DNA of 64,000 bases from Alphaproteobacteria bacterium (lineage in GTDB: Bacteria; Pseudomonadota; Alphaproteobacteria; Caulobacterales; Aquidulcibacteraceae): the NCBI GenBank assembly GCA_016124655.1, contig WGNI01000011.1, positions 64,196-128,195 on the forward strand, written 5' to 3'. Positions within the stretch are counted from its first letter, which is position 1, and the number at the start of each line of letters is the position of its first letter. Below are positions 14,652 through 31,133 of the stretch, in pieces. A program made the translations under genes and the position numbers. The notes beneath the pieces are model-generated. The model saw nothing but the letters and a program-made list of their open reading frames with translations. It was not told the origin of the DNA and searched no databases.

Positions 14652-16279
14652 GCACGGCGCACGCCAATCGTCCCGTCTGGGGTTTGCGGGTTGGAGAAAA
14701 GAGCATGGGCGCTTACGCGCTCCGTGTCTTCGAACCCCGACCGCAACGGCTCGCCGACATTCTGGATGAGTCGGCTAAGTGGGGCAAAAGGGAATTTCTG
14801 GTCCACGGTGCGCGGCGCGCCTCTTTCGCGGAGTTTCACGCGGCTGTCGCACGGGCGGCCGATAGACTGGCGGAGGCAGGCGTGCGCCGCGGGGACAGAG
14901 TGATGGTACTTGGCGCAAACAGCGCCGAGTGGCTTGTGGGGTTTTGGGCATTGGCGCGGATCGGCGCCGTCATTGCGCTTGGCAATGCGTGGTGGAGCGC
15001 GGAAGAGACGGCTCACGCTTTGGCCCTCGTCGAGCCTCGCCTCGTTCTCGTCGATGAAGCGCGCTGCGTGATCGTGCCTTCCGATCATCCGTCCCTCGCG
15101 ATCGAAACCCTACGCAAAGACTGGACCGAAAATGACGGCGCTGCGCCGACCACGAAGGTGACGCAAGTGCAGGACGCAGAAACCGATGAGGAGCATCCTG
15201 CGCTGTTCATCTTTACGTCCGGAACGACGAGCCGTGCGAAATCCGCAGTGCTGTCCCATCGTGCGGCGCTAGCATGCCTGCATGTGCTGTACGCAGGGCG
15301 CGGCGTTTCACCCTCGGCGTTCGGTCCCGAGGATGCGCAAACGACCATGCTGTCCTGTGCGCCCCTGTTCCATCTTTCCGGATACATGTCGCACACGCAG
15401 GCTTTGCTGAGCGGGCATCGCTTCATCTTGCTTGAAGGGCGCGCGGATCCCGAACGGATACTCGATCTCATCGAGAAGGAATGCGTCCAAACGTGGGCGA
15501 GCGTCCCGACGCTCTTGTCGCGAGTCGTGCACACGCCGTCCGCGCTATTGCGAGATCTTTCGTCGGTCACCGGCATCGCGGGCGGCGGCGCCACGGTGTC
15601 TTCGGAGCTGATGGATCGCGTGCGCCGCGTTTTTCCGAATGCGAGAATCGGGGCCAGCGCGACATACGGCCTGACGGAGGCAGGCGGATCGGTCACGCTC
15701 ATCAGCGGGGAAGAGTATTTGCGACGACCGCTGTCTTGCGGTCGCGCCTTGCCCGCGTGCGAAATTCGGATCGAAGCGCCTGATGCAGAAGGCAGGGGAG
15801 AAATTCTCGTGCGAACTCCGTCGCAGATGAGCGGCTACTGGGGTGAGACGGAGGGGCGCGCGATCGATCGCGAGGGCTGGGTACACACCGGCGATCTGGG
15901 GCGGCTCGATGAAGAAGGGTACCTGTTCATCACTGGTCGGGCGAAGGACATCGTGATCCGTGGCGGGGAGAATGTATCTGCGCCTCGCGTCGAACATTGC
16001 ATATTGCGCCACCCCGCCGTTCTCGAGGTCGCCGTCGTCGGTCTGCCGCATCCCGATCTCGGGGAGGAAGTCGCGGCCGCTGTGGTCGCCAAGAAGGGGG
16101 CTGCGCTCGATATCGAGGCGCTTGCGGCGTTTGCGTCCGAAAGCCTTGCGTATTTCGAACGTCCGACCCGCTGGTGGATCAGGGATGAGCCATTGCCGAC
16201 CAACGCAACGTCAAAGATCGTCAAGGCGCAACTTATCGCCGAGTGGCCAGACGGAAATGCGCCTGAGCGAGATGTTTAG
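14648..16279 (+). CDS. AMP-dependent acyl-CoA synthetase/ligase
   Basis: AMP-binding motifs are present (FTSGTTSRAK, YGLTE, GDLGRLDEEGYLFITGRAKD). Its ATG overlaps the TauD stop codon (ATGA). Confidence 0.8.
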   Translation: MSTAHANRPVWGLRVGEKSMGAYALRVFEPRPQRLADILDESAKWGKREFLVHGARRASFAEFHAAVARAADRLAEAGVRRGDRVMVLGANSAEWLVGFWALARIGAVIALGNAWWSAEETAHALALVEPRLVLVDEARCVIVPSDHPSLAIETLRKDWTENDGAAPTTKVTQVQDAETDEEHPALFIFTSGTTSRAKSAVLSHRAALACLHVLYAGRGVSPSAFGPEDAQTTMLSCAPLFHLSGYMSHTQALLSGHRFILLEGRADPERILDLIEKECVQTWASVPTLLSRVVHTPSALLRDLSSVTGIAGGGATVSSELMDRVRRVFPNARIGASATYGLTEAGGSVTLISGEEYLRRPLSCGRALPACEIRIEAPDAEGRGEILVRTPSQMSGYWGETEGRAIDREGWVHTGDLGRLDEEGYLFITGRAKDIVIRGGENVSAPRVEHCILRHPAVLEVAVVGLPHPDLGEEVAAAVVAKKGAALDIEALAAFASESLAYFERPTRWWIRDEPLPTNATSKIVKAQLIAEWPDGNAPERDV

Positions 16280-16369
16280 CGGTCCGCGGCCCATGACGCG
16301 CTTGCGCGGCCCACGCAGATCGCTTCGCAGCATCAAGTCCGGATGAAAGTGCGGACAACGGCAAGTGCG

Positions 16370-17971
16370 CTAGTTCAGCTCATGCTCGAAAATGGCGCGC
16401 GCGCGCGCATAGTCGGCTTTGCCGTTGGGCGCACGTGGCGCTTCTTGCGTGAACACGATCCGTTTCGGCGCCTTGTAACCTGCGAGACTCGTCTTCACGT
16501 GCGCAATCAAGGTCTGTTCCCCGACCGGCGCCGAGACGCTCGCCACGGCTGCTACGGATTGCCCGAGGCGCGGATCGGGAACAGCGAACACAAGCGCGTC
16601 GGTCACCAGTGCGTGGCTCTTGAGCGCCTGCTCGACCTCTTCCGGATAGACCTTTTCGCCGCCGGTATTGATGCAATGACTGCCGCGACCCAGCAGGACG
16701 ATCGTCCCGTCTGCATCGACCGTGGCGTGATCGCCGCCGATCATCCGGCGCACGCCATCGATCGTGACATAGGTGCGCGCGGTCCGTTCCGGATCTTTGT
16801 AATAGCCGAGCGGTAGGTCGCCGCCCTTTGCGATGAGGCCGACTTCTCCCGAACCGGGCGTGACAGGTCGAAAGTCATCGGGTCGCACGACGATGGCGTC
16901 GGCCGGTATGAATTGGGCCGTCGATGGTCGCACGTCCCTGGACGTCACAGACGCGGCGATGCTGGCCGCTTCTGTCGCTCCCAGTCCGTCAATCAGCAGC
17001 GCGTCGGGCATGAAGTCGAGCATGCCTTCCTTGACCTCCGCACTCCACATCATTCCGCTCGAGACGACGCTTGTGACCGCGCGCACATCCCATCTGCCCG
17101 GCTCCTTGCGGAGCGCATCAAGCAGCGGACGCGCAAAGGCGTCTCCCACGATAATGATGCCGGTGCAGGCGTGCCTCTCGATCGCGTCGAGCGCGGATGC
17201 GGGATTGAAAGCCGGCGACGCCGAACAGACGACAGCGCCTCCACGGGACAAGACGCTGACAGCAGCAAAGAGCCCGGTGCCGTGCATCAGCGGCGGACCG
17301 ATGTGGTAGCGGACCTGCGGTGCGCCGCGTGTGCGTTCCGACCGGATCTGCTCCTGAAGCGCCTCGACGGTCATCGGCGGCGGTTGATCGGGCGCCGCCG
17401 CGCGCGACGCCGCGAGCACGTTCCATAGCACGCCGGACGTCCACATGACGCCTTTGGGCAGTCCCGTCGTACCTCCGGTGTAGAGCAGAAACAGGTCATC
17501 CGCCGAGCGACGCAGGTCCAGCGGGGCGCCATCGGAGCGGTAGATGCTCTCGAGGGCGATGGCTTCAGGCGCCGAGCCCCGGGCGACGATTCTGACGGCG
17601 AGCGCGCTCGCTTCGTCGCGGGTCGGAATCTTGGACGCGAATTCCGCATCGAAAATGATCGCCTCTGCGTCCGAATTCTCGACAAGATAGGCGATTTCCT
17701 CACGCCCATAGCGATAATTGATATTTACCGGCGCCAGCCGCGCCTTGAAGCAGGCTGCGAAGGCGATGAGGTAGTCCGGGCCGTTGCGCATATAGAGCGC
17801 GACCTTGGCCTGATCGCTCAGACCTGCGTGGCGCAACGCACGTGCGAGTGCGTTGGATCGATGCTCGAACTCAGCCCAGCTGACGGTTTGGTCGTCGCAA
17901 ATGACGGCAGGTTGATCAGGCGCACACGCTGTTGCGACCGCGCTGAAGACGTCTCCGAAGCTGACAGTCAT
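16370..17971 (-). CDS. AMP-dependent acyl-CoA synthetase/ligase
   Basis: AMP-binding motifs are present (YTGGTTGLPKGV, GDLPLGYYKD). The ATG at 17971 is preferred because an operator-like motif lies at 18009-18024, about 40 bp upstream. The track ORF extends to 18055. Confidence 0.75.
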   Translation of the reverse strand: MTVSFGDVFSAVATACAPDQPAVICDDQTVSWAEFEHRSNALARALRHAGLSDQAKVALYMRNGPDYLIAFAACFKARLAPVNINYRYGREEIAYLVENSDAEAIIFDAEFASKIPTRDEASALAVRIVARGSAPEAIALESIYRSDGAPLDLRRSADDLFLLYTGGTTGLPKGVMWTSGVLWNVLAASRAAAPDQPPPMTVEALQEQIRSERTRGAPQVRYHIGPPLMHGTGLFAAVSVLSRGGAVVCSASPAFNPASALDAIERHACTGIIIVGDAFARPLLDALRKEPGRWDVRAVTSVVSSGMMWSAEVKEGMLDFMPDALLIDGLGATEAASIAASVTSRDVRPSTAQFIPADAIVVRPDDFRPVTPGSGEVGLIAKGGDLPLGYYKDPERTARTYVTIDGVRRMIGGDHATVDADGTIVLLGRGSHCINTGGEKVYPEEVEQALKSHALVTDALVFAVPDPRLGQSVAAVASVSAPVGEQTLIAHVKTSLAGYKAPKRIVFTQEAPRAPNGKADYARARAIFEHELN

Positions 17972-18395
17972 GACCCAAACCGCATCTACGCCGCGCAGTG
18001 ACCAGACACTAAACAAATGCGCAGTTTGTGGCAATGATATGAGCGCATATGCCATGGCCTGAGACCTGAAAACGCCTCCAAGAATGAGTAGAGACCGTGA
18101 GACGATAGCTGGATTTCAACCGCGGCTGGTGGAGAAACCGGGGTCGCGTCAAAATCCTTCAAATCTCTGGCGTTCCGCCTCACATCGGCGCCGCAGACTG
18201 GTCCTGAAACTCACTTTGCGGAGCGACTGAGCTATTGCCGGAAATCGGGGTGTCGAACCCCGGAGCTGGCCGTGCCCTTCAAGCCTCTGGCGGGGTTTCG
18301 AGACGGCAAAAGCCTAGTGGCGGAGAGTGAAGGACAAGGTCCAAACTCGGAGCCACGCGCGCAGGGTTGGTGTGGCGGCTGCTCGCAGGCGAGGA

Positions 18396-18409
18396 TGGCG
18401 GAGAGGGAG
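18396..18409. repeat. attL-like direct repeat (TGGCGGAGAGGGAG) identical to the last 14 nt of the tRNA-Ser gene at 25691-25704
   Basis: This is an exact 14-bp match to the tRNA 3' end. A second degenerate copy (tggcggagagtgaagga) lies at 18318-18334. It marks the left boundary of the lower-GC island. Confidence 0.6.
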
Positions 18410-18541
18410 TCCGACGACAGCCCTTATTTTTCAAGGGTTGCGAGGTGATGACGACTGCGTACCCACGTCGCAACCCACGTTAACTGCGCCTTCCCGTCGC
18501 CGTTTGCCAGCGCGCGCCGATGACTCGCAACTAAATGGTAA

Positions 18542-18982
18542 GTGAGGCTTGCTACCAAAGGCTGTGGCGACGCGGGGGAGCCGACAGTGTTTTGGCGCAG
18601 TGTGATTCCAGCGATCCTGCTGGTTGCGACAGCAACGGGCGCTGCGGCGTTACCTGCAACTACTTTGTCTTGTGCAGGAACCGTCTCTGTTCGCGGATAT
18701 CAAGACCTTCCCTACGCTGGTGTGGTTGTGACCGTCGAAGAGGATGCGGTCGTTATTGAGAACCTGCCGAGCCTAAGTGGCACATGGCCCATTTTCCGAG
18801 CAACAGACCATCTGATCACAGTCTTGTCGGCCACGACGAGCGGCGGCCAAGTTCAAGCCAGCTTCAACAGGTTAAGCGGCGACATGTGGATTATGGCGTC
18901 GAACTCGCCCGTGGGCCGCCTCCCCACCAGAGAAGAGATGCGATTCTCTGGACGATGCGCCCGAGCGGAACGGATTTTCTGA
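18542..18982 (+). CDS. Hypothetical secreted protein (island cargo)
   Basis: It has a signal-peptide-like segment (WRSVIPAILLVATATGAAALPA) and no recognisable domain. The start is uncertain, with a GTG near 18587 possible. Confidence 0.35.
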   Translation: MRLATKGCGDAGEPTVFWRSVIPAILLVATATGAAALPATTLSCAGTVSVRGYQDLPYAGVVVTVEEDAVVIENLPSLSGTWPIFRATDHLITVLSATTSGGQVQASFNRLSGDMWIMASNSPVGRLPTREEMRFSGRCARAERIF

Positions 18983-19030
18983 ACCCTCAAGATCGTCCCG
19001 CTTGCCAGGCAGGCATGTAATGGTCGTCGG

Positions 19031-19417
19031 TCAGAACATAGGCCCGGTGCATTGCCCGTTTAGCATCTGACCGTGGCATGTCGGATGATATGCGCGCTGC
19101 TCAACTATGGTTCCGTGGCACTGCCCGTTCACGATGGCACCTACGCACTCGTCAGGGCTGTAAACCGTCGTCGAGTTTTGAACGGCAACCGCACCGGGAC
19201 GCATTGTTTCCGACTGCGCCTGCGCGGAACGATGTTCGCCAGCAGAAAACGCGCAGGCTTCGCGTACTGCGCTAAATATGAGGAGCGCGCTTTGACAGGC
19301 ACCGCCCTGCGAGCGTGCCGTCTCCTTCCCAGGGGCGGGAGAACTCGTCGAAGCGCAGGAAGCAAGACTCAGCGCTGCCAAGCTCGTAACTAAAATACAA
19401 ACGCTTGACCTACGCAT
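19031..19417 (-). CDS. Hypothetical Cys-rich lipoprotein (island cargo)
   Basis: It has a signal peptide with a lipobox (LSLASC) and a repeated NGQC(H/T)G motif. It sits in lower-GC DNA. The internal ATG at 19417 is preferred. Confidence 0.45.
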   Translation of the reverse strand: MRRSSVCILVTSLAALSLASCASTSSPAPGKETARSQGGACQSALLIFSAVREACAFSAGEHRSAQAQSETMRPGAVAVQNSTTVYSPDECVGAIVNGQCHGTIVEQRAYHPTCHGQMLNGQCTGPMF

Positions 19418-19886
19418 GTGGTTCGCCCGGTTCTTATGGATTCGATCCAACGGTGGTGTACGGCAAAGGTGTTAAATTCTCGCCCAAGTTGAAGGTGTAG
19501 ATTTCGTTTTCGCGTCTTGGCTGCGCAGCGAGGCGTAATTGTGGGGGCTTTGGGAGAGGTCCGAAAAATTGATACATATTTGGCGAGCCCGGTAGATCAG
19601 GGAAAAGCGACCTGGAATATAACCATCCCCCCGGTACCCTCGACCGATTTTTGCCACGCTCATAAAATTCCTGATCGCTTTCGCGTTGCCGAGTCCAGGC
19701 AGCGCCGTTCGGCTGCGTGGAAAGGGGAGGCAGCGGACAACGGGGCGAACCGCACGCAGCGCCACCCTATGCCGTTCAACGCGAACGTTCACAGAGCGAC
19801 GAACTTTCTTTCGTACAACACAGCTCGCGCAGATCGTGGGTTAAGCCGTGGGTTGGACACTGAGGCGGCAGCGCGGGCCTTATAGA

Positions 19887-20390
19887 TCAAGGCTTGATGG
19901 CGGACGCCTGATCCGACGACGGATACGTTACGTCGTTAAACTCAGCGTCGATGGCCTCGTTGGCAAACTCCACCGGACGGCCCGCCTTTAAATCTTCAAG
20001 CGCTTCGAGCAGCGCCTCGGCGCTATTGTCGATAACGGCGACTGCACTCCGCGAAACGGTCACGATGCCAGCTTTTTCCAAAAGCTCCTTGGCCGCCGCG
20101 AGGCGCACGCTTTCATTGCGCGCATTTCGAGCGAGGGCGAGGATCGTGTCGAACGCGACGTTGGTGGCGGACACGAAGCGCTTCTGCACTTCCTCTTTCA
20201 ACACCTTCTGAATGCGGTCAGACCCAAGCAGGATCGCGGCGGAGCGTTTGGCGTCTTCATCGGACGTGGCGAGGCCCGCGCGCTTCGCCGCCTCAGGACC
20301 GTCTTCGGGACGGCCGCCAAGCTCCAAGTAGTGCGCGAGGAATTGCGACTGCGCCGGGTTCAGATTGGCGATGGTAAGCGAGCGAGACAT
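19887..20390 (-). CDS. terS: Phage terminase small subunit (TerS, Terminase_2-like)
   Basis: The N-terminus (LTIANLNPAQSQFLAHYLELGG...AAKRAGLATSDEDAKRSAAILLGSDRIQKVLKEE) fits the Terminase_2 small-subunit pattern (LT.kQe.F..eYl..gN...AA..AGYS...A...g..LL.n..I...I). Confidence 0.6.
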   Translation of the reverse strand: MSRSLTIANLNPAQSQFLAHYLELGGRPEDGPEAAKRAGLATSDEDAKRSAAILLGSDRIQKVLKEEVQKRFVSATNVAFDTILALARNARNESVRLAAAKELLEKAGIVTVSRSAVAVIDNSAEALLEALEDLKAGRPVEFANEAIDAEFNDVTYPSSDQASAIKP

Positions 20391-20618
20391 GGCGAAGGCG
20401 ATCAGCGGTTAGAGCGAGACAGAATTTTTCACGGACACGGAGCGTGCGGCGCGCACGCCCAGCGGTGCAGGCGCATGGAGGCAGGAGCAAGCGACCAAAC
20501 ACTGGCGGGCGCGGCGTCTTATAACCTTTCGGGGAGGTGTATTACGGCCGGTCTGAAATGTGCTGCGGGCGCGCGCTTCCAGCGCCGCAAGCACATAGGG
20601 GGTATGGGGGTTGAGACT

Positions 20619-20712
20619 ACCCCCTGGTTTTTCCCCGGTTTTGGGCATTTTGGCTCCGGTTTTGGGCAGGGTTTTGGGCAGGGTTTTTCCCCGGTTTTTC
20701 CCCGGTTTTGGC
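20619..20712. repeat. Iteron-like tandem repeat array (GGTTTTGGGCA / GGTTTTTCCCC units at about 11-bp spacing), a putative replication origin
   Basis: At least seven helically phased GGTTTT-containing repeats lie immediately downstream of the primase-helicase gene 3' end, in the position where PICI and SaPI origins are found. Confidence 0.55.
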
Positions 20713-20734
20713 CTTATAACCTGGGCAAACAGCA

Positions 20735-22738
20735 TTAGCTCGGCCCTCCGGTTTGATGGGTTTCTCCGGTTTTCTTCGCGCGCCGCGCCAGCTCTTTCGC
20801 CATCGTTTCGTCGCTCGGATAGTAGCCAGCGCTCATGCGTTTATCGCCGCGCACGTAGCGCAACTGTCCTGCGTCCAGCGCAGCGCGAAGCTCCTCTTTG
20901 ACCGCCTTCGACGTGAGCTTTTTCGCCAGCTCTTTTTCAAGCTGATTCAGAACGGGGCCGTCAATGTTGCGCTGGACGGTGAACGGCAGCCCCAACTCAG
21001 CGGCTTGCGTGGCGGCGCGCACGACAGCTTCGCGCATCGCGGTGGCGTCCTGCGCGGCCGTGGGCACAACCGCAGTGGGGATCAGCGCGCCTCTGTAAAA
21101 GCGCAGCTTGATCGGCTCGCCCTTGCGACCGTGGTTGCGCTTTTCGACGGTCAGAACGAACTCATCTTCCTTGTTCTCGTTCGCCTCGATCTTTAAGCGG
21201 GAGCGCGCGGCGTTGCGCCAGGCAACCGACCAACCGTCCATTTCACCGCGACTGCTCCCAGCCTGCGACGGATGCCACGGCATTATGATGGTGCAGTCGC
21301 CTTTATCGCATATGCCTTGAAGAACGACCTTGATAAACAGGTTCACGCTGTCTTCGTCGATTTTTCCGTGACCTTTAAAGCGAACAAAGTCGTAAGCGCT
21401 GTCGAGCACCAAGACTTTATGGCCGGGGATGCTTTGCAAGAGCGAAAGCAGCTCGTGATAAAACGGCCGCAACGTGCAGTCCGCGCTCTCGCCCATGATC
21501 GCCAACGCGCTGTCTTTGCCCTTGCGAGCGAGGAACACGCCTCCCGCGTAGGGAGTGTCAGGCGTAGGCTTGGAGGGCGGCGGCAGCTCCAACACGTCGG
21601 CGATGGCCTGCGCACGGCGCGCAAGTTCATTTTCGTCGTCTTCGGCGCTCACATACACCATCGTCGCCTGCGCCGGAGGCGGATCGCACTTGATGCCGAA
21701 CGGAGGCGCGCCGACGTTCAGCGCCATCGCCCATTGCTGCGCAAGACGGCTTTTGTGGTTTCCACCCGGCGCACAAAGGAACGTGACAATGCCTTTCTCC
21801 AAGAGCCCGGTAATAAGCTCCTGCACCGGATGAACCTTGCGCCCCAGCATGTCGAACGCGGAAATCGTGTCACCCGGCTCAGAATGCGGACGCTCGCCCA
21901 GCGCCGGGGTGGAGAGGATCAAATCGCAAAGCGCATCCGCGCCATAAGAAACGAGGAAATCGTCAGCGCCGACTTTGTGCGGCTTCCCTTTCGCATCGAC
22001 CTGATTAGAAGGCGGGATGCGAACGCAATGAACGCGCGCGCCCTGCAACGCCAGCAGCGTCGCAAGACGTTGTTCAGCGCGCTCCACATTGGAGTTGGTA
22101 GCGATGTCGCTGTCGAAGAGGATGCAAACGTCAGTAAACTGCGCCACCACCGTAGCGAGATCGGGATGCAGCGCGTGCGAGGCGGACTTGCTCTCGCGCA
22201 CATTGTCCACGCCACCGATGGCGACACACGGAATGCCGACCTTGCAGAGCGCAGCCGCTTTCTTCTCGCCCTCTACAACGCATACAGCGCCTTCGGGCAA
22301 AATCGACGGCGCAAGGGCTCGCGGGAAGTAGATTTGCGAACCGCTTCCACGCGGCGCGTCGTATTTGCGCCCATCCTTGGGCAGCGATTTGCCGAGAACC
22401 GGAAGGTAGCGAGGACGCACATAGGGCACGCCAACGCCGGTCAGATCGTAGCTAAGCGGCGCTCCATCCATACGAAGATAAGGGATGATGATGGCCGGAT
22501 GCTGTGCGAAATCGGGATGAACAGTGCTGGCGTCGTCCACCAAATACATCCCGTTCGCCTGCGCATCTGCAAGCGTGAGCCCGCTACGCGCCAAGTCATT
22601 CTTGGCAAGCGCCAGCGTCACGCCGCTGCATTCGCCGTCATTGGCGGACGCACGGAGGCGCGTGACGTTGATGTTCGACGGGTTGTCCGCCATATTGGTT
22701 TCCGTCATCGCGTAAGTGATCCGTGTCTTTCGGCGCAT
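20735..22738 (-). CDS. Primase-helicase (toprim/DUF3854-like N-terminal domain plus AAA_25/RepA-like P-loop NTPase)
   Basis: It has a toprim-like segment (VVEGEKKAAALCKVGIPCVAIGGVDN), a P-loop with a deviant Walker A (LCAPGGNHKS), and a Walker B (VLVLDSAYDF). It is 667 aa, the typical size of P4-alpha and PICI Pri-Rep proteins. Confidence 0.6.
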   Translation of the reverse strand: MRRKTRITYAMTETNMADNPSNINVTRLRASANDGECSGVTLALAKNDLARSGLTLADAQANGMYLVDDASTVHPDFAQHPAIIIPYLRMDGAPLSYDLTGVGVPYVRPRYLPVLGKSLPKDGRKYDAPRGSGSQIYFPRALAPSILPEGAVCVVEGEKKAAALCKVGIPCVAIGGVDNVRESKSASHALHPDLATVVAQFTDVCILFDSDIATNSNVERAEQRLATLLALQGARVHCVRIPPSNQVDAKGKPHKVGADDFLVSYGADALCDLILSTPALGERPHSEPGDTISAFDMLGRKVHPVQELITGLLEKGIVTFLCAPGGNHKSRLAQQWAMALNVGAPPFGIKCDPPPAQATMVYVSAEDDENELARRAQAIADVLELPPPSKPTPDTPYAGGVFLARKGKDSALAIMGESADCTLRPFYHELLSLLQSIPGHKVLVLDSAYDFVRFKGHGKIDEDSVNLFIKVVLQGICDKGDCTIIMPWHPSQAGSSRGEMDGWSVAWRNAARSRLKIEANENKEDEFVLTVEKRNHGRKGEPIKLRFYRGALIPTAVVPTAAQDATAMREAVVRAATQAAELGLPFTVQRNIDGPVLNQLEKELAKKLTSKAVKEELRAALDAGQLRYVRGDKRMSAGYYPSDETMAKELARRAKKTGETHQTGGPS

Positions 22739-22773
22739 CCAGAAGCCCGCCGCGCCAACGGTGGGTTGTTGTT

Positions 22774-23229
22774 TTAGAGACGATACCCGGCCGCTGGGTC
22801 AGGACGCCTTTGCGGGAGATTGATGTAAGCGTTCGGGGTGCCGCGCCCGTTGTGCATTGCGCGCCTCACGCGCAACCCCAAATGAAGCGCGGCGGCGATA
22901 AGCATTCCATTGGCGACGTAGCTGTTGCCTTGGTAGGTCGCGGCAAACCAGCGTTCGACTTCATGCTTGTAGCCGTAAGACGTAGCGTGACGGTTCAGCG
23001 AGGCCGTGGGCTTCATTAAGCTCAACCACGCGATGGCTTTCTCGAACTCTTGGCACGAACTTTCCGTAAGCGCATCGGCGCGCATCGCCGCCAGATCGTC
23101 CGAAGGCCGAAATTTCCCGAAGCCGTATGAACTCAGCTCGGGCTCGCGTTCCAAGATCGCCGCGACCTCCGCGCGAACGTCTTCAACAGGGCGATACTCA
23201 AATACGGGGAGTTGGGAACGGCTGTTCAT
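22774..23229 (-). CDS. Hypothetical protein (island)
   Basis: 151 aa with no recognisable domain. Its start codon overlaps the alpA stop (ATGA), implying translational coupling. Confidence 0.4.
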   Translation of the reverse strand: MNSRSQLPVFEYRPVEDVRAEVAAILEREPELSSYGFGKFRPSDDLAAMRADALTESSCQEFEKAIAWLSLMKPTASLNRHATSYGYKHEVERWFAATYQGNSYVANGMLIAAALHLGLRVRRAMHNGRGTPNAYINLPQRRPDPAAGYRL

Positions 23230-23447
23230 TAGGCGGCTCCCTTCACCTGCGTCCGAGGGAGAGAAGCAAACCAGCGCTCGGCGCTTTCACGCGTGATGCG
23301 CGTGGCCGCACCAATTTTGACGCGCTCAACAGCGCCGGTTTTCATCAGCTCGTAGGCTTTGGTGTGTCGAACTCCGTAGAGAGCGCAAAACTCCTCCACG
23401 GTGTAGGCCAACGGTTGTTTGGCAAGGCTCAGCATCGTGTTCTCCAA
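23229..23447 (-). CDS. alpA: AlpA-family excisionase / transcriptional regulator (HTH)
   Basis: It is 72 aa with HTH sequence (YTVEEFCALYGVRHTKAYELMKTGAVERVKIGAATRITRESAERW), typical of AlpA/Xis proteins of P4-like and PICI elements. Confidence 0.65.
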   Translation of the reverse strand: MENTMLSLAKQPLAYTVEEFCALYGVRHTKAYELMKTGAVERVKIGAATRITRESAERWFASLPRTQVKGAA

Positions 23448-23544
23448 GATCGCTAGCGGGTTCGCCTAGCTTCGGGGGAACACATGCGGCTTTGCGCGAA
23501 TGCGATCCATGAAACGAACGCCTTCGCTTCAAGGAATCGTTCGT

Positions 23545-24303
23545 TCACATGCCTTTGAGCCAACCTTTGACGGTGCGCGGATCGCGGCCGTACTCCGACG
23601 CGCGCAGCTCCGCAAAGCTGCTTACGGTCAGATGGCGGTTCGTCCCTTGGGAAATCTTAAAGTCCGCGCGCGCTTGATCTCGCAGGCTCTGCTTCCGGCG
23701 CGCAGCACCACTCTTGGCACCTGCGGCTTTACTTCTAGATTTCCCTTCCAGGCGCTCCCCGGCCAAGTTAAAGACGCCGAGAGTCACCTGTTGGAACGTG
23801 GCCTCCGCCGTGGAGAGTGCGTAGAGCGCAGCGTCGCGCCGCCCCATCCATTCATTGTAGGTTTCGGGCCTCCACGTTTGCTGTTCACGATCGACCGTCA
23901 GAAAAACGGCGAGCGCGCCTAGCACATCGGACGCGGCCATGATTTCGGGCGGCGCGTCTAAACCCTGGTCCAAATGAAAACGGCGGGCATCATCCGCGAT
24001 GCGCGAGAGAGCTTCTAAATCGCCACCCCGCGCTAGGCCAACGAGCTTCTTGCGCGGCGCATATCCTTCTTCCAGCAACGCCGAGAGAGCCGCATCGAAT
24101 GCCGCTCGGTGCGCTTGCTGCACGGCCTGCGCGGCAGCGGGCAGCGAGGACAGGCGCTCTTGCACCGAACCGCTTAGAAACGTCGGGCTCTGTGCCGAGG
24201 CGCGTGCAATGTTTTTACGCTGCGTGTCGGCGTCACCCTCGAAAATGTCGTCAAAGGTCACGCGCTGCGCTCCCTGACTTTGCTGGCGCAGAACGCCGAC
24301 CAA
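23545..24303 (-). CDS. Hypothetical protein (island), possibly regulatory
   Basis: 252 aa with no clear domain. The track ORF overlaps the integrase 3' end, and a GTG at about 24261 would place its start immediately after the int stop codon. Confidence 0.35.
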   Translation of the reverse strand: MVGVLRQQSQGAQRVTFDDIFEGDADTQRKNIARASAQSPTFLSGSVQERLSSLPAAAQAVQQAHRAAFDAALSALLEEGYAPRKKLVGLARGGDLEALSRIADDARRFHLDQGLDAPPEIMAASDVLGALAVFLTVDREQQTWRPETYNEWMGRRDAALYALSTAEATFQQVTLGVFNLAGERLEGKSRSKAAGAKSGAARRKQSLRDQARADFKISQGTNRHLTVSSFAELRASEYGRDPRTVKGWLKGM

Positions 24304-25502
24304 GCGTCCATGAGCGCGCGACGCTTCTGGAACAAATCGCCGCGTCGGTAGGCCGCTTCAACCTTGTCACCGACAACGTGAGCCAACGCCGCCTCAGCCA
24401 CTTCGCGCGGGAAATTGGTCTTTTCCGCAGCCCAGTCGCGGAATGTGGAGCGGAAACCGTGAACCGTTTCGGCGCGCTGCATCCGGCGCAGAAGCACGGC
24501 CATCGTCGCCTGCGAGATCATTGCACCTTTGCGCATGTCGCTCGGAAAGATCAAATCGGAAGGCTCAGGATTGCCCGCCGCGTCATGGCGTTGTTTCAAC
24601 ACTGCAAGCGCAGCCTTAGAGAGTGGAACGCGATGCGTCCGGCCACCTTTCATGCGCTCAGCCGCGACGGTCCACAGCGCATTCTTGAAATCAATCTCAC
24701 CCCACGTCGCGCCAGCGGCCTCGCCGTACCGCGCCGCCGTAAGGATCAAAAACCGCAGACAGTCGGCACCAGCGCCGGTGCGATGCGAGAGCGCATCATA
24801 CAGCGCAGGCATTTGGTCGATGGGCACGGCACGATGATGCTGGACCGGCGCGAGTTTCGCACGGGAGGGAAGCGCCTTCTGCAAATGTCCACGCCACCGC
24901 GCAGGGTTGTCGCCGGTGCGATGGCCGCGCACCGCAGCCCAATCCAAAATCGTTTCGATGCGCCCGCGCAGGCGTGACGCCGTTTCCGTCTTGGTCGTCC
25001 AGATCGGATCGAGCACCCGCATAACCAAATCTTGGCTCACGTCGGCGACCGGAACGCCGCCCATGACCGGATAAGCGTAGGTAACGAGCGTGCTGCGCCA
25101 TTGCGCGCGGTGCTTGTCATTGCGCCAAGAGCCTTCATGCGCCGCGATGTAGGCTTCCGCGCACTCTTTAAACGTGAGCTGCGGCGTGCGTTCGGCTTTC
25201 GCCTCCTTCCGCGCCTTTCGGCGGGAGTCGATGGGGTCAGTGCCCGCCTTGGCGAGTTTGCGCTGAGCGAGGGCAGCGTCGCGCGCGTCGCCAAGTTCGA
25301 CCAGATCGGCGGAGCCAAGGCCCATTTCACGGCGGCGGCCATCGGCGGCGGTGTAGCGCACGATCCAAGACCGGCGCACGGCTCCGCCACGACCGATAGC
25401 CACCTGCAAGAACAGGCCGCCTCCGTCCGCATAAAGGCCGGGAGCCTTGGCCGCCGCTACCGCGCGGGCGGTTAGTTTATGGACGCCTCTCGCCATGCCC
25501 AA
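24258..25502 (-). CDS. int: Tyrosine-type site-specific integrase (P4-type, with DUF4102 N-terminal arm-binding domain)
   Basis: The catalytic R...HxxR...Y residues are present (HGFRSTFRDWA, AAYRRGD). It lies directly beside the 3' end of tRNA-Ser. Confidence 0.85.
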   Translation of the reverse strand: MGMARGVHKLTARAVAAAKAPGLYADGGGLFLQVAIGRGGAVRRSWIVRYTAADGRRREMGLGSADLVELGDARDAALAQRKLAKAGTDPIDSRRKARKEAKAERTPQLTFKECAEAYIAAHEGSWRNDKHRAQWRSTLVTYAYPVMGGVPVADVSQDLVMRVLDPIWTTKTETASRLRGRIETILDWAAVRGHRTGDNPARWRGHLQKALPSRAKLAPVQHHRAVPIDQMPALYDALSHRTGAGADCLRFLILTAARYGEAAGATWGEIDFKNALWTVAAERMKGGRTHRVPLSKAALAVLKQRHDAAGNPEPSDLIFPSDMRKGAMISQATMAVLLRRMQRAETVHGFRSTFRDWAAEKTNFPREVAEAALAHVVGDKVEAAYRRGDLFQKRRALMDAWSAFCASKVRERSA

Positions 25503-25690
25503 ACGCTGTGCAAAACCCTCGCCAAACTGCGAACCGGGATTCTAACTCACCGCCTCCACCCACGAATTTGGGGTGACTTGCGACGAAGTTCAGCGATCCG
25601 CTGCGAAGGAATATAGCGTAGGAAAACCTTGTTTTACAGAGGTTTGATAAGGATTTTCCGAAGGGCTACGAAGTGGAACGAATGCGGAAC

Positions 25691-25780
25691 TGGCGGAGAG
25701 GGAGGGATTCGAACCCTCGATACCCGTGAAGGTATTCCGGTTTTCGAGACCGGCGCGATCGACCACTCCGCCACCTCTCC
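25691..25780 (-). tRNA. tRNA-Ser (anticodon CGA), type II with a long variable arm
   Basis: A minus-strand cloverleaf (GGAGAGGTGGCGGAGTGG...CTCGAAA...GGGTTCGAATCCCTCCCTCTCCGCCA). The anticodon loop CUCGAAA gives anticodon CGA. The 3' end encodes CCA. Confidence 0.8.
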
Positions 25781-25846: not shown

Positions 25847-28800
25847 CTAGGCGGCGCGGCGTGCGGCGAAGCGACCGCCATCGAGGGCGACCACCCGGCC
25901 ATACTTGGCCAGCGTGGTCAGCACCTCGGCAATGCGCTTTTGGCGCGCCTCGCTGGTCTTGCCCTTGAAGAGGCGCGCCAGGGCCGCCGCGTCGAGCGGC
26001 TGGCCGTGCGCGGCCAACGCAGCCTCGATGGCGAGCGGCTGCTCGTAGCGATCCTTCGGAAACGCGGGCAGCGCGGCCGTGAGTGGTTCTTCGGCCTCGG
26101 CGAAATCTAGATCGCCGGTTCGCGGCGCAGGCGCCGTCTTGGCGAAGCGCGGGATCTGATACTCCGGCCGCAGCCAGCGAACAAAGCCTTGGGCTTCTTC
26201 CCTGGCGGGCTCGGTATTGAGCGCGACGAGGCGTTCAAGAATTTGTTCGTCGCTGAGATCGGCGGGCCAGCCATAGGCTTCCGCGGTCGCCGCATCGATC
26301 TGATTGTGCAAGTCCTTCAGCACCAGCACGAGCCCGCGCGTCTTCACGTCCTCTTCCGCTGCGCTGAGCGTCGCGCCCGCTTTGACCTTTTCCAGTACGT
26401 TGTAGAGGCCTGTCAGCGTGAGATCGGAATGTTCGGCCTGCACGCGCTTGCGCGTGGCGTCGAGTTCTTCGCCAAGCGCGCGCAGCTTGGCTTTGAGCGG
26501 CTCCGGCGGATCGGGGAAGGGGAAGGGATCGAAGCAGGTTGTTTTGACATAGACCGGCCTGTCCTCGAGCAATCCGCCGACATGAGATGTCCAGGCAAGG
26601 TGTGGCTTCGACGAGAGAATAGCTAAGTGTGCTCCGTCTCCGTTCGCGATCACAATGAGCTTGTTGTCCGGAACGATTTCCGCTTCGAGAAACTGAAATG
26701 TGCGGTGTTTCGAAGTTTCGATCGTCGCGATGTAGCGCGGCAATCCTTCAAGGGCAGGACGCAGGTCCCGCCGTGGCTCGCCAAAGACCCACCAATTGGT
26801 TTTGTAGCTCTCGCGATTGTTTTGATCGCGCTCCGGCTTCACCCGCGCGAGGACGTGTTGATACACTTCCGGAAATCGCTGGCGCGCTCCTCCGCGCTCA
26901 ACCCGAAAAGATCGATCACCATAACATCGCGCGAATGGCCAGTGAGATCGCGGCCGTTGCGATAGGGGCGGATGTGGCGCTCAAGCCCGGCGCGATTGCC
27001 CAAGCCCAGAAGCGCCGCTTCCGCAGGCGTCACGATGAAGCCGGCTCCCATCAATTGAACGCCCCGAGAGCAAAGGCCGCGACCCGCGTTCAACGGTTGC
27101 GTACTCGTCAGGTCGATTCCAACACTCAAATCCGCATTGATGCGCCCCATCGAAAGCTTGAAGTCAATTTTCGGCTCATCCGTATCGATGTCGCGTTCGG
27201 AGACCGCCTCCATCAGCCGCCCGAATGTCGGTTCCGCCTGCGCGACGCTCATGGCGATGCGCACGGCGGCGCTGTCTTTGGTCGCCTTGGTCCAGGGTTG
27301 ATCCGGAATCGCGAACACCAGGCAGAGCGGATTCTTGGCGGCGAGGTGGCGCTCGATCACGCGGCGCTGAAACACCTGGCTGATCGAATTGGTGGTGACG
27401 AGCCCGAACCGGCGCAACGCGGTTTGGTCGCGGCGCAAAACGTCCGCCGCGCGATCCCACCAATACATCACGTAATCGGCGCTCTCATTCATGTGCGGAT
27501 GCGCGGCCCACAGCGCTTCGGCATAGCCGGGCTCACTGCGCGAGCGAATATCCTTGCCGCCGATAAACGGCGGATTGCCGACGATGAACTCGGCTTCCGG
27601 CCAGGCGGGGCGGCGGGGATTGGGGTAGTGCTCGGTGCGAACTGCTCCCCCGTTCACGGGGGAGCTGTCAGGCTGCGAAGCAGGCTGACTGAGGGGGCTC
27701 GCCTGCTCACTCCCCCCTCCGGTCGCTGCGCGACCACCGCCCCCGTGAACGGGGGAGGAGTTGGTCTGCACCGCCGGCACAGGAAACCCATCCCAGGTCA
27801 ACACGGCGTCATAGCCCTCGCGCTTGCCGAAATTGATGTTCTCGAACGCGCGCAGGATCGGCTCTTCGGGATGCGCCGTCGTATTGCGATAGTGCCATTG
27901 CAGATAGCCGATCCACACCACGAGTTCAGCGATGGCGGCGGCGCGCGGATTCAGCTCAAGGCCCAGAAATAAATGCGGGTCGACCGTGAGGTTCTTGAGC
28001 GCAAGCAGGCCTTGTTCGTCGCCCAGCTTGGTCAGCGTCTCCAGCACTTCGCCTTCGAGCTGCTTCATCAGTTCGAGCGCGACGTAAAGAAAATTGCCCG
28101 TGCCGCAAGCCGGATCGAGCACGCGCGTGTGCGTCAGCTGATCGTGGAACGCGCGGACGATGGCGATCGCCTTGCCGTCTTCTCCTTCGTCCTTGGCGAT
28201 TTCCGCCTTGGTCAACGCCGCTTCCCAATCGGCCCGCAACGGCTCCATGACGGTGACTTCGACGAGGCGTTGCACATAGGCGCGCGGCGTGTAGTGAGCG
28301 CCCAGTTTCTTGCGTTCCGCTGGATCCAGCGCTTGCTCCAACAGCGTGCCGAAGATAGCCGGGTCGACTTCCCGCCAGTCGGCCTTCGCCGCGCGAAGCA
28401 AGACGCCGATCTCTTCCTTTTTCAGTTGAAAGGCCGTGGTGTTCTTGAAGAGGCCGCCATTGAAGTGCCGCACGCGCGCTTCAATCACATGGCTGAACTC
28501 GACGCCCTTTTCCATGTCGCTCCAGAGCTGCTTCAAGCGCAGGGTGAACGTCTCGGGATTGTCGACGCACTTTCGAAGCAGGTCACGAAAACTCTCTTTC
28601 GGCAAAAGCCCAGTGTCTTCCGCGAACATCGTGAAGAGGCACCGCATCAGGAAATGCGCGACATCTTCCGCGTGATTTCCGCGGTCTTCCAGCGCCTTGC
28701 TGACCTCCGCCAGATATCCTGCGATCTCTCGCGTAACGCGGACCGCTTTCTTCGCCGGATCGAGACCATGTGGATCCGTCCAGATCGCTTTAAGGAGGTC

Positions 28801-29358
28801 GCGCGTTCTTTCGTTGCGTAAGTCTTCCAGAAAGAGTCGATATCCATTGCGATCGGGAAACTGCGTGTAGGCGCGCCCTGTGCCGGTGAAGTCGGCGTAC
28901 AATTCGAAACAATGCCCAACATCGCAGACGATGATGAAAGGCGGCGCCGTGTGGTTGGAGTCGAGCAGGAAGACGTAGCCTTCCGCCTGCTTGCGCGCAT
29001 TGCGCATCATGACGTCCCAGCCGCGTTGCGCTGTGCGCTCGCCCTGCGGCGATTCATTGAACAGCGCCATTTGGCCGGGGAGGGCGTTCTTGCTGCCCGG
29101 GAGGCGGGATTGTTTGGCCTCGAGGATGAAGCAGTTGCGCTTATAGATGTCGATGCGCTTGGGGTTGGTCGCGTCGGCGCTTTCGCGCGGCCTTACAGGG
29201 CGTTCGAAGGTATAGTCTCCCCCGTCGCCGCCGACCGCCGCATCGGGGCGGTCGACCGCGATCACATCGCAGAGTTCGTACAGGAAACCGACATAGTTCG
29301 CCCGCTCGGCGCCATGGCTCGATTTCCACTTGGCGATGAATGTCTCGATATCCGTCAC
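25847..29358 (-). pseudogene. MmeI-family type IIL restriction-modification enzyme (N-terminal PD-ExK nuclease plus gamma-class N6-adenine methyltransferase plus TRD), split by a frameshift near 26860-26875
   Basis: The 839-aa and 339-aa ORFs overlap at 26839-26866 in different frames, and together they align colinearly with MmeI. Shared motifs are D...EAK, AHYTP, DPACGTGNFL (motif I), NPPF (motif IV), and the C-terminal FDPFPFP...GLYN. Confidence 0.65.
27645..27758. repeat. In-frame 114-bp palindromic insertion inside the RM gene
   Basis: Two hairpin-forming units (ctcccccgttcacgggggag and cccccgtgaacgggggag) in inverted orientation flank further palindromes. The segment encodes a low-complexity peptide (SSPVHGGGGRAATGGG...SSPVNGG) just before the NPPF motif. 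Confidence 0.5.
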
Positions 29359-30984: not shown

Positions 30985-31058
30985 GGTGATGTAGCTCAAT
31001 GGTAGAGCGTCCGGCACGCGCCGGAAGGTAGAGGGTTCGATACCCTTCATCTCCTCCA
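30985..31058 (+). tRNA. tRNA-like gene with a non-canonical anticodon arm; identity unresolved (tRNA-Gly(CCC)-like D and T arms)
   Basis: It has a GTAGCTCAATGGTAGAGC D-arm, a GAGGGTTCGATACCCTT T-arm, and a CCA end. The anticodon stem TCCGG/CCGGA encloses only a 6-nt loop (CACGCG), and the acceptor stem has one T-T mismatch. Confidence 0.45.
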
Positions 31059-31133
31059 AACGACTAGCTCAGGTGGGTAGAGCACAAGACTGCTAATCTT
31101 GCTGTCGGAGGTTCGATTCCTCTGTCGTTGACC
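31059..31133 (+). tRNA. tRNA-like gene with class I (short variable arm) structure but a Ser-type anticodon loop CUGCUAA (anticodon GCU)
   Basis: It has a TAGCTCAGGTGGGTAGAGC D-arm, anticodon stem CAAGA/TCTTG, T-arm GGAGGTTCGATTCCTCT, and acceptor 3' strand GTCGTTG-A-CC with no encoded terminal A. Its 5' end abuts the previous tRNA, so nt 31058 would have to be shared. Confidence 0.45.

Follow-up and report, generated by a model that had tools for sequence, protein, structure and literature searches.

To our knowledge, the phage satellites that have been characterised experimentally come almost entirely from Gammaproteobacteria and Firmicutes, with a few from Actinobacteria. Phage-inducible chromosomal islands (PICIs) of the pac type use a terminase small subunit (TerS) of their own to redirect the large terminase (TerL) of the helper, and published PICI detections, more than 99.9% of which fall in Proteobacteria or Firmicutes, are dominated by E. 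coli and staphylococci (PMC10085698). The PICMIs are restricted to Vibrionaceae; one of them, PICMI115, is a 6.1 kb element with the gene order int, iolg, alpA, up1, prim, up2. Deletions in it have established that helper-induced excision needs int, iolg and alpA, that replication needs prim, that expression of alpA alone triggers excision, and that full-size capsids receive the island as an 8-mer concatemer (PMC10803314). Elements that carry AlpA, primase and TerS and are encapsidated in virions have also been documented in marine Alphaproteobacteria (PMC9618062). Here we describe a 7.3 kb element in a 64,000-nucleotide stretch of contig WGNI01000011.1 (assembly GCA_016124655.1; the whole stretch is referred to as the window), from an uncultured alphaproteobacterium of the Caulobacterales. 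Our analysis indicates that it is an intact integrative element from a family of small alphaproteobacterial islands, most likely phage satellites of the PICI type.

The segment in question lies against a serine tRNA gene, between an AMP-dependent ligase gene and a restriction-modification (R-M) gene of the MmeI family. Its GC content is 60.4% against 64.0% for the remainder of the window. Proteins of the window match exactly those with locus tags GC189_11925 to GC189_11945 on a 219-kb MAG contig. The features of the locus, in window coordinates, are as follows.

18396–18409: distal att core and far boundary of the element, where the 14 nt that end the tRNA recur exactly as a direct repeat (TGGCGGAGAGGGAG)
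18410–19886: distal arm, GC 57.8%, with doubtful open reading frames (ORFs) only
19538–19663, minus strand: second conserved non-coding block, core GGGTACCGGGGGGATGGTTATATT, 225–350 bp downstream of terS
19887–20390, minus strand: TerS homologue of 167 aa, helical, with an N-terminal region resembling a helix-turn-helix (HTH)
20558–20624, minus strand: conserved non-coding block (from alignment and folds) comprising G5-N9-C5 (20606–20624), a C-box CCCCCATACCCCC (20598–20610) and an imperfect GC hairpin (20558–20596)
20622–20714: iteron array of about 8 units of 11–12 nt with phased A-tracts (CCGGGGAAAAA / CCCTGCCCAAAA, gene strand)
20735–22738, minus strand: primase-helicase (Pri-Rep) of 667 aa, with an N-terminal Toprim-like DUF3854 domain, a RepA/DnaB-like AAA_25 helicase domain and a variable C-terminal domain (about residues 561–667)
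22774–23229, minus strand: conserved, winged-helix-like protein of 151 aa
23229–23435, minus strand: excisionase/AlpA-like HTH protein of 68 aa
23436–23544, minus strand: structured intergenic spacer
23545–24261, minus strand: gene overlapping the integrase gene, 238 aa, GTG start (NCBI annotation GC189_11945)
24258–25502, minus strand: tyrosine integrase of the P4 type, 412–414 aa
25691–25780, minus strand: tRNA-Ser(CGA), the integration target, whose 3'-terminal 14 nt (25691–25704) form the tRNA-proximal att core

Read along the minus strand, the order is therefore int, the int-overlapping gene, the HTH gene, the 151-aa gene, Pri-Rep, the iterons and terS. This order, the reduced GC content, the iterons, the tRNA target and its repeat had all been proposed by the first-pass annotation of this DNA, and each was upheld when examined with dedicated programs. 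ARAGORN and Rfam (RF00005, 62.5 bits) both identify the tRNA, and the 14-mer TGGCGGAGAGGGAG has two exact copies in the 64 kb, one at each end of the segment. The exact recurrence of a given 14-mer within a few tens of kb has a chance of about 1e-4 (by arithmetic, not from shuffles), while with up to 2 mismatches shuffles give a chance expectation of 0.77 per window. When the last 25 nt of the tRNA were used with up to 3 mismatches, no further copy was found in the window and no match in any of 100 shuffles. The segment thus shows what is expected of a tRNA-targeting integrative element, namely a stretch that starts with an integrase and has the tRNA 3' end directly repeated at its boundaries, and we are in little doubt that it is a mobile integrative element. 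The integrase is well supported by Pfam (Arm-DNA-bind_3 2.4e-16, Phage_int_M 2.8e-32, Phage_integrase 1.9e-15), by PHROGs (phrog_1 5e-49) and by an NCBIfam integrase match; it runs in the same direction as the tRNA, starts 190 bp from it, and has a ratio of non-synonymous to synonymous change (dN/dS) of 0.13 against its counterpart in a related element (L003, below). ARAGORN also called a 94-nt tRNA-Ile(TAT) inside int (25373–25466, minus strand; 252–345 of L001, an identical Logan contig from SRR10063240 and hence this same element), which has no Rfam support and is a false positive. As first suggested, no ORF of the element matched a capsid, tail or lysis family in Pfam, PHROGs, NCBIfam or PADLOC, nor did any match a relaxase or defence family, and PADLOC returned nothing for the ORFs without assigned function.

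The genes next to the tRNA correspond in their order to the excision module of PICMI115. The first-pass annotation had a hypothetical gene at 23545–24303 abutting int; a gene is indeed present, and the best call for it is 23545–24261, which overlaps int by 4 nt, the stop of one and the start of the other sharing GTGA (24258–24261). An ATGA overlap had been ascribed instead to alpA and the gene after it, where the junction is actually TAATG, an overlap of 1 nt. An int overlap of exactly 4 nt is present in five distinct elements, represented by six sets of gene calls (L001, L003, L123, L128, L129/L130), and in the calls for the same elements the HTH gene overlaps the following gene by 1 or 4 nt. 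No family in Pfam, PHROGs, NCBIfam or PADLOC matched the 238-aa protein, which occupies the position of iolg, so that int, a gene overlapping it by 4 nt, an alpA-like HTH gene, a gene for a small protein and a primase gene are colinear in the two elements. The HTH protein matches HTH_17 (PF12728, 2.3e-7), phrog_66 (2e-6), annotated 'excisionase and transcriptional regulator', and, below the cut-off, TIGR01764 'excise' (3e-4). It has no match to the AlpA family PF05930, and what was first named alpA is better described as an HTH_17/Xis-like gene; PF12728 is among the AlpA profiles of the PICMI model (PMC10803314). The spacer between the int pair and the HTH gene folds strongly (−47.4 kcal/mol, z = −3.2) and is a candidate for a terminator together with a promoter or operator that would divide two transcription units. 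The 151-aa protein, which has a weak fold resemblance to the origin-binding domain of P4 alpha, is possibly a DNA-binding accessory factor or regulator.

Pri-Rep was recognised by Pfam (DUF3854 3.1e-18, AAA_25 3.9e-20) and by PHROG primase and primase/helicase families, and its profile gave a weak match to the catalytic core of DnaG primase (4e2k, E 0.009). Residues invariant in 13 relatives (E156-G157, D209-S210-D211, P324-G325-G326, K329-S330 and D446-S447) are read here as the Toprim E and DxD motifs and the Walker A and B motifs. Directly after the Pri-Rep stop lies the only strong tandem array of the element, which was detected both by repeat search and by TRF and is a candidate replication origin. 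A 108-aa ORF at 20409–20735 covers this array and is probably not a gene. Arrays are found at the same position in six related elements: two (L002 and L122) share the iteron unit of the window and have Pri-Rep C-terminal domains that are 74% and 66% identical to the one described here, and four (L003, L125, L126 and L129) have arrays of different sequence. In two more, L040 and L123, the repeats at this position are less clear. The C-terminal domain is the most variable part of Pri-Rep, and its identity tracks the iteron type, as one would expect for an initiator and its iterons.

The claim on which the term 'satellite' depends is that the TerS homologue is real. The protein matches phrog_2538 'terminase small subunit' (1.6e-7), and a family profile built from a 16-member alignment found solved small terminases in the PDB (6w7t, E 2.2e-6; 7joq, 1.7e-3), with the SF6 TerS entries just below. 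The match to 6w7t extends over 104 aligned positions and includes the oligomerisation helices. Searched against 1.84 billion proteins, the profile collected 1,864 representatives, and of ten intermediate relatives four pass the curated Terminase_2 threshold and one narrowly misses it. An AlphaFold model of the protein is all-helical (pLDDT 76); its best matches among PDB folds are small terminases, at non-significant scores, and its top named matches in BFVD (Foldseek) are all 'Terminase small subunit' (best E 1.7e-4, probability 1.00). The gene is also under strong constraint, with dN/dS of 0.07–0.16 against four relatives. Taking profile, relatives, predicted fold and selection together, we accept the TerS assignment; profile support for int, Pri-Rep and TerS, which the first-pass annotation had made a check on its own reading, was thus obtained for all three, in the case of TerS through PHROG, profile and relatives.

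Between the iterons and terS lies a block that is near-invariant in the window, L002, L122, L003 and L040, although synonymous sites in the flanking genes are saturated (dS > 1). In the window the hairpin stem carries a compensatory U:A in place of a C:G pair. In four further relatives (L123, L125, L126 and L129) the same position holds a C-rich box of this type, which is degenerate in L129, and a hairpin whose stem differs in sequence. It can be seen that the block tracks the identity of TerS and not that of Pri-Rep: L040 (Pri-Rep 52%, TerS 71–72% identity) has an identical hairpin, whereas L123 (Pri-Rep 51%, TerS 30–34%) has a different one. For this reason the block was assigned to the packaging module rather than to the origin, and, lying upstream of terS, it is a candidate pac site or a candidate operator or late promoter of terS. 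Linkage alone could produce the correlation with TerS, however, and the folding z-scores are modest (−0.8 to −3.0 for individual elements); RNAalifold gives a weak consensus over an alignment in which MAFFT does not register the diverged hairpins, so that conservation of the structure is suggestive. An alternative for the C-box and hairpin is an ssi priming hairpin of the RSF1010 kind. The oriV of the IncQ plasmid RSF1010, which is served by a RepA-type (AAA_25) helicase and a primase, combines iterons, a GC-rich segment and a conserved hairpin, and its layout resembles that of the element. The hairpin here co-varies with TerS and not with the primase-helicase, which favours a role in packaging or terS control. 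The second conserved block, downstream of terS, was found by blastn and alignment and has counterparts in L002 (5501–5626), L003 (13199–13263) and L040 (13053–13086). Neither block, nor the non-coding arms, had a match in Rfam.

Pri-Rep has 76 clusters of relatives above about 40% identity, all from metagenome-assembled genomes (MAGs), metagenomes and one Mesorhizobium genome (Mesorhizobium koreense); the MAGs are mostly named Hyphomonadaceae, Rhizomicrobium or Rhizobiaceae. Family proteins also occur in Bradyrhizobium genomes. A scan of genome contigs with the Pri-Rep alignment, in which a degenerate pattern made up the matches listed, gave among these just remote DUF3854 proteins of Planctomycetota and further phyla and is uninformative about this family. 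Nine other distinct elements were found in which a DUF3854 primase-helicase gene is followed by terS (identities are to the proteins of the window).

L002: Pri-Rep 79%, TerS 81%; the element runs off the contig end
L122: Pri-Rep 78%, TerS 78%; GmrSD and Type ISP R-M genes beyond terS
L003 (Hyphomonadaceae MAG): Pri-Rep 67%, TerS 72%; at tRNA-Ser(UGA), with a 14-bp repeat of its last 14 nt; 10.9 kb
L040: Pri-Rep 52%, TerS 72%; at tRNA-Pro(GGG), with a 46-bp repeat; 7.2 kb; an unrelated integrase at the distal end
L123/L124: Pri-Rep 51%, TerS 34%; an 18-bp repeat resembling a tRNA-Pro fragment; 8.2 kb
L129/L130: Pri-Rep about 50% (by domain), TerS 37%; at tRNA-Pro(GGG), with a 49-bp repeat; 9.0 kb
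L126: Pri-Rep about 47% (by domain), TerS 41%; adjoins tRNA-Ser(CGA); PF05930 AlpA and a serine recombinase
L125 (Rhizobiaceae MAG): Pri-Rep 40%, TerS 35%; at tRNA-Ser(CGA), with a 40-bp repeat; 17.2 kb
L128: TerS 41% (P0117), which matches Terminase_2; a DUF3854+DUF5906 primase; type I R-M and GmrSD cargo

In every family locus examined the primase-helicase gene is followed by the TerS homologue within about 220–360 bp, and in a search of 5.8 billion proteins the TerS homologues were largely on the same contigs as Pri-Rep homologues, as judged by matching contig sizes. An iteron-type array separates the two genes in seven of the nine relatives; L128 has a different helicase domain and neither an iteron array nor a C-box. 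The recombination module varies. L003 carries the int, overlapping-gene, HTH and small-protein module of the window, but across the relatives there are at least four unrelated tyrosine integrases, and a serine recombinase replaces them in L126. Six of the nine lie at tRNA-Ser(CGA), tRNA-Ser(UGA), tRNA-Pro(GGG) or, in L123, a tRNA-Pro-like fragment, and direct repeats of 14–49 bp bound five of them. The bounded elements, that of the window included, measure 7.2–10.9 kb, except for one that reaches 17.2 kb. In the window element the six core genes all have dN/dS of 0.07–0.37 against their relatives and are under purifying selection. The gene content is thus that of a modular mobile family with varied recombinases and tRNA targets, and not the fixed non-mobile locus without repeats that had been named at the outset as the finding that would undo the proposal.

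Some of these loci carry features of interest in themselves. Candidate cargo lies beyond terS in L122 (8869–17122), where a GmrSD_N gene accompanies one for a 1652-aa Type ISP R-M enzyme, and in L128 (7000–13015), where type I R-M genes (HsdM/HsdS-like) accompany GmrSD. In L123 a second island with a P4-type integrase (15418–21995) comes right after the 8.2 kb element, making a tandem array at the tRNA-Pro-like att fragment. L040 (8002–8477) and L129 (13012–14110) share the same type of host locus, tRNA-Pro(GGG) by an HU/IHF-like gene, fabH and plsX, and since the two elements differ (TerS 72% and 37% identical to that of the window) this locus type is a recurrent hot spot. Finally, three Pri-Rep relatives (P0016, P0018 and P0021; 51–52% identity) are on metagenome contigs of 7,770–7,780 bp, about one element length, which might be excised circular forms.

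How the element relates to known satellites was assessed class by class. Under the SatelliteFinder definition, read by function rather than through its profiles, it appears to have four of the five core functions of a PICI and none of the forbidden genes (PMC10085698). The integrase is recognised by Pfam, PHROG and NCBIfam models; the regulation module, for which an AlpA, MerR or Stl homologue is expected, is represented by the HTH_17 and phrog_66 matches given above; the primase-replicase role is probably filled, judged by domains and not by the five SatelliteFinder pri-rep profiles, by the DUF3854 and AAA_25 protein with its adjacent iterons; and the small terminase is supported by phrog_2538, the PDB profile matches, its relatives and BFVD. 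Phage structural and lysis genes of other kinds are absent, as the definition requires. The fifth component, a capsid-morphogenesis gene, is lacking, with no capsid-related match for any ORF, and a PICI lacking it is designated 'Type B' (PMC10085698). The likeness to Gram-negative PICIs and pac-type SaPIs extends to a terminal integrase, an AlpA/Xis-type regulator, a primase-replicase with adjacent iterons, a TerS without TerL, co-directional core genes, the absence of structural and lysis genes, a size below 15 kb and accessory genes placed after terS. It differs from PICIs in having no capsid-morphogenesis, Ppi or Rpp-type interference gene, in integrating at tRNA genes and in its uncultured alphaproteobacterial host.

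The first-pass annotation had offered PICI and PICMI together as the type, and the PICI layout is the part that stands. The element does share with PICMIs a small size (6–7 kb), large non-coding stretches with questionable small ORFs, and the lack of capsid remodelling genes, from which concatemers in full-size capsids would be expected. However, PICMIs adjoin fis, whereas the element sits in tRNA-Ser(CGA); their primases are of the DUF3987 or DUF5906 type, whereas its own is DUF3854+AAA_25 (among the relatives only L128 has DUF5906); and they have no terS, sid or ppi, whereas here terS accompanies int, the overlapping gene and the AlpA-like gene. With P4-like satellites the element has in common the P4-type integrase, placed at a tRNA, the AlpA-type regulator and the iterons near a primase-helicase, yet it falls outside that class in lacking the psu-delta-sid capsid module and epsilon by Pfam and PHROGs (PMC10085698), in having a TerS, which P4 does not, and in its AAA_25 helicase in place of a D5-like one, L128 excepted. 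Likewise it is no cfPICI, having neither capsid and head-tail connector or adaptor genes of its own nor terL. The VEIMEs are also small integrase-bearing elements, some of which, in Alphaproteobacteria, carry primase/helicase, AlpA and TerS homologues (PMC9618062), but they are defined by recovery from virus particles, whereas the present element is known from its genes and is likened to them by description.

These comparisons suggest a life cycle. As the anatomy shows, a P4-type integrase put the circular element into a 14-bp core shared with the end of the tRNA, regenerating the tRNA and leaving the direct repeat. By analogy with PICMI115 and the Gram-negative PICIs, int and the gene overlapping it may form one unit, and a helper phage would turn on the HTH (AlpA/Xis-like) gene together with those coupled to it; excision would then be carried out by Int, the product of the overlapping gene and the HTH protein. 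As its domains and position imply, Pri-Rep would use its variable C-terminal domain to bind the adjacent iterons and would copy the circle. For packaging, the TerS of the element would recruit the large terminase of the helper to a satellite-specific site, the best candidate for which is the conserved C-box and hairpin just upstream of terS. Since the element has no capsid-remodelling genes, concatemers would be packaged by headful in full-size helper capsids. We infer, on good grounds that fall short of demonstration, that the element is probably a phage satellite that uses its own TerS.

A number of results weigh against this reading. TerS was identified by profile and fold similarity, and as a single sequence it scores below the Pfam cut-off for Terminase_2 (E 0.0027, 18.8 bits against 26.1). 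By tblastn it has no match in 50,697 cultured-phage records or in IMG/VR, and two Terminase_2-positive relatives have none in the phage records either, so that no helper lineage can be proposed; no helper phage was identified in either collection. Pri-Rep has no match in IMG/VR, and the hairpin motif is absent from it apart from one occurrence inside the acyltransferase gene of a Mu-like prophage contig, which we dismissed as chance. None of five complete family contigs (L124, L126, L127, L128 and L130) has terminal overlaps that would indicate a circle, the exact reconstructed attB junction of an empty site was absent from metagenome contigs, and the element encodes neither a capsid-morphogenesis protein nor another helper-interference function. 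Excision, replication and packaging of the element are predicted functions. The empty site was also sought through the AMP-dependent ligase gene of the left flank, but the relatives of this gene are at most 58% identical and the eight closest (L041–L048) have no adjacent tRNA-Ser; the comparison failed because close relatives of the organism are lacking.

The absence of any phage or virome match for any part of the element would also fit a self-replicating integrative element, such as an integrating plasmid or mobilisable island. The TerS-like protein, as a small oligomeric DNA-binding protein, would then have been recruited to serve in replication, partition or regulation, and the element would move by conjugative mobilisation, in vesicles or by transformation. 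We consider this alternative unlikely. Int, Xis and Pri-Rep with iterons suffice for an integrative replicon, and the single-sequence evidence for TerS is weak. Furthermore, DUF3854 is reported to occur in experimentally active Rep proteins that drive the replication of cyanobacterial plasmids (PMC10079941). Against it, no relaxase, oriT-type protein, coupling protein or partition gene was found in the element with Pfam, PHROGs or NCBIfam, and the TerS assignment is supported over the oligomerisation core, beyond the HTH. In addition, all family loci examined have terS linked to the primase gene, purifying selection on terS is strong, and pac-type PICIs are marked by just this combination, a TerS with no TerL (PMC10085698).

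A phage satellite of the PICI type is also a better fit than one that exploits a gene transfer agent (GTA), alone or besides phages. Here TerS would redirect the large terminase of a domesticated GTA, and TerS with the C-box and hairpin would be a portable packaging cassette giving sequence-specific loading to an otherwise indiscriminate alphaproteobacterial GTA terminase. GTAs are common in Alphaproteobacteria, the class to which the hosts belong, Hyphomonadaceae included, and we know of no GTA satellite described so far. The Caulobacter GTA packages about 8.3 kb (PMC9632790), and the family elements are mostly 7.2–10.9 kb, those of 7–9 kb being about one headful of a GTA of this type; nor was a phage relative of TerS found in the 50,697 records or IMG/VR. 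However, a coincidence of size is weak evidence, none of the family members examined has a GTA gene linked to it, and this TerS is Terminase_2/PaP3-like with N-terminal helices, a type different from the TerS of RcGTA, which together make the proposal very improbable. We give equally little credence to a decayed prophage remnant or a chance juxtaposition at a tRNA hot spot that is now immobile: scars of earlier integrations at the site, a distal 1.5 kb without convincing genes and a split MmeI gene next door point that way, but all six core ORFs are intact and their dN/dS is well below 1, the att repeats match exactly, the catalytic motifs are invariant, no capsid, tail or lysis gene fragment is left by Pfam or PHROGs, and nine other elements, at different sites, have the same compact architecture.

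A search of the literature, family-specific as regards DUF3854 only, found no DUF3854/AAA_25–TerS satellite family and no satellites in these alphaproteobacterial orders. We regard the element as representing a new family of a known kind of phage satellite, credible and unsurprising to a specialist. A coherent family in Alphaproteobacteria of Caulobacterales and Rhizobiales type would carry the PICI/PICMI design into a major environmental class, combining a PICMI-like minimal backbone for excision and replication with a self-encoded TerS, and would offer a compact natural system for asking what minimum is needed to hijack a tailed phage. Its modularity, in which iterons go with Pri-Rep and the C-box and hairpin with TerS, provides testable candidates for ori and pac specificity. 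As relatives carry restriction and GmrSD defence genes, such islands may shape phage resistance in soil and aquatic Alphaproteobacteria.

The distal arm had been credited with a secreted cargo gene at 18542–18982 (plus strand), which is doubtful, its signal-peptide-like N-terminus notwithstanding. Like the other ORFs of the arm, it has flat GC at the three codon positions (about 0.58, against about 0.65/0.48/0.72 in real genes of this genome), was not called on the identical contig L001, is absent from the protein collection with the starts tried, and has no family match in Pfam, PHROGs, NCBIfam or PADLOC. A second ORF (19031–19450, minus strand) has a convincing lipoprotein signal (…LAALSLASC…, with the lipobox LASC) and a Cys-rich C-terminus, with flat codon-position GC and neither homologues nor annotation; possibly it is cargo that was acquired recently or is decaying.

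Outside the element, just beyond its distal end, local alignment detected two decayed copies of the 3' part of tRNA-Ser:

18236–18307: copy spanning the T-arm to the anticodon arm, of marginal score (34, against a shuffle 95th percentile of 31)
18318–18334: copy matching at 15 of 17 positions

Both are probably scars of earlier integrations at this tRNA, to judge from the alignments.

Just past the tRNA, the MmeI-family gene (type IIL R-M; 25847–29358, minus strand) is split into two overlapping ORFs, of which 26839–29358 holds the N-terminal, helicase-spacer and methyltransferase domains and 25847–26866 the target-recognition domain; it may be a frameshifted pseudogene, a case of programmed frameshifting or an assembly error. 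Further along, two tRNA genes stand head-to-tail with a 2-nt spacer (30985–31133, plus strand; Rfam 53 and 57.5 bits). The first has no ARAGORN assignment and an anticodon loop of apparently 6 nt, CACGCG, and the second is called by ARAGORN as a tRNA-Ser(GCT), although serine tRNAs are of class II and its 76 nt are too few for one.

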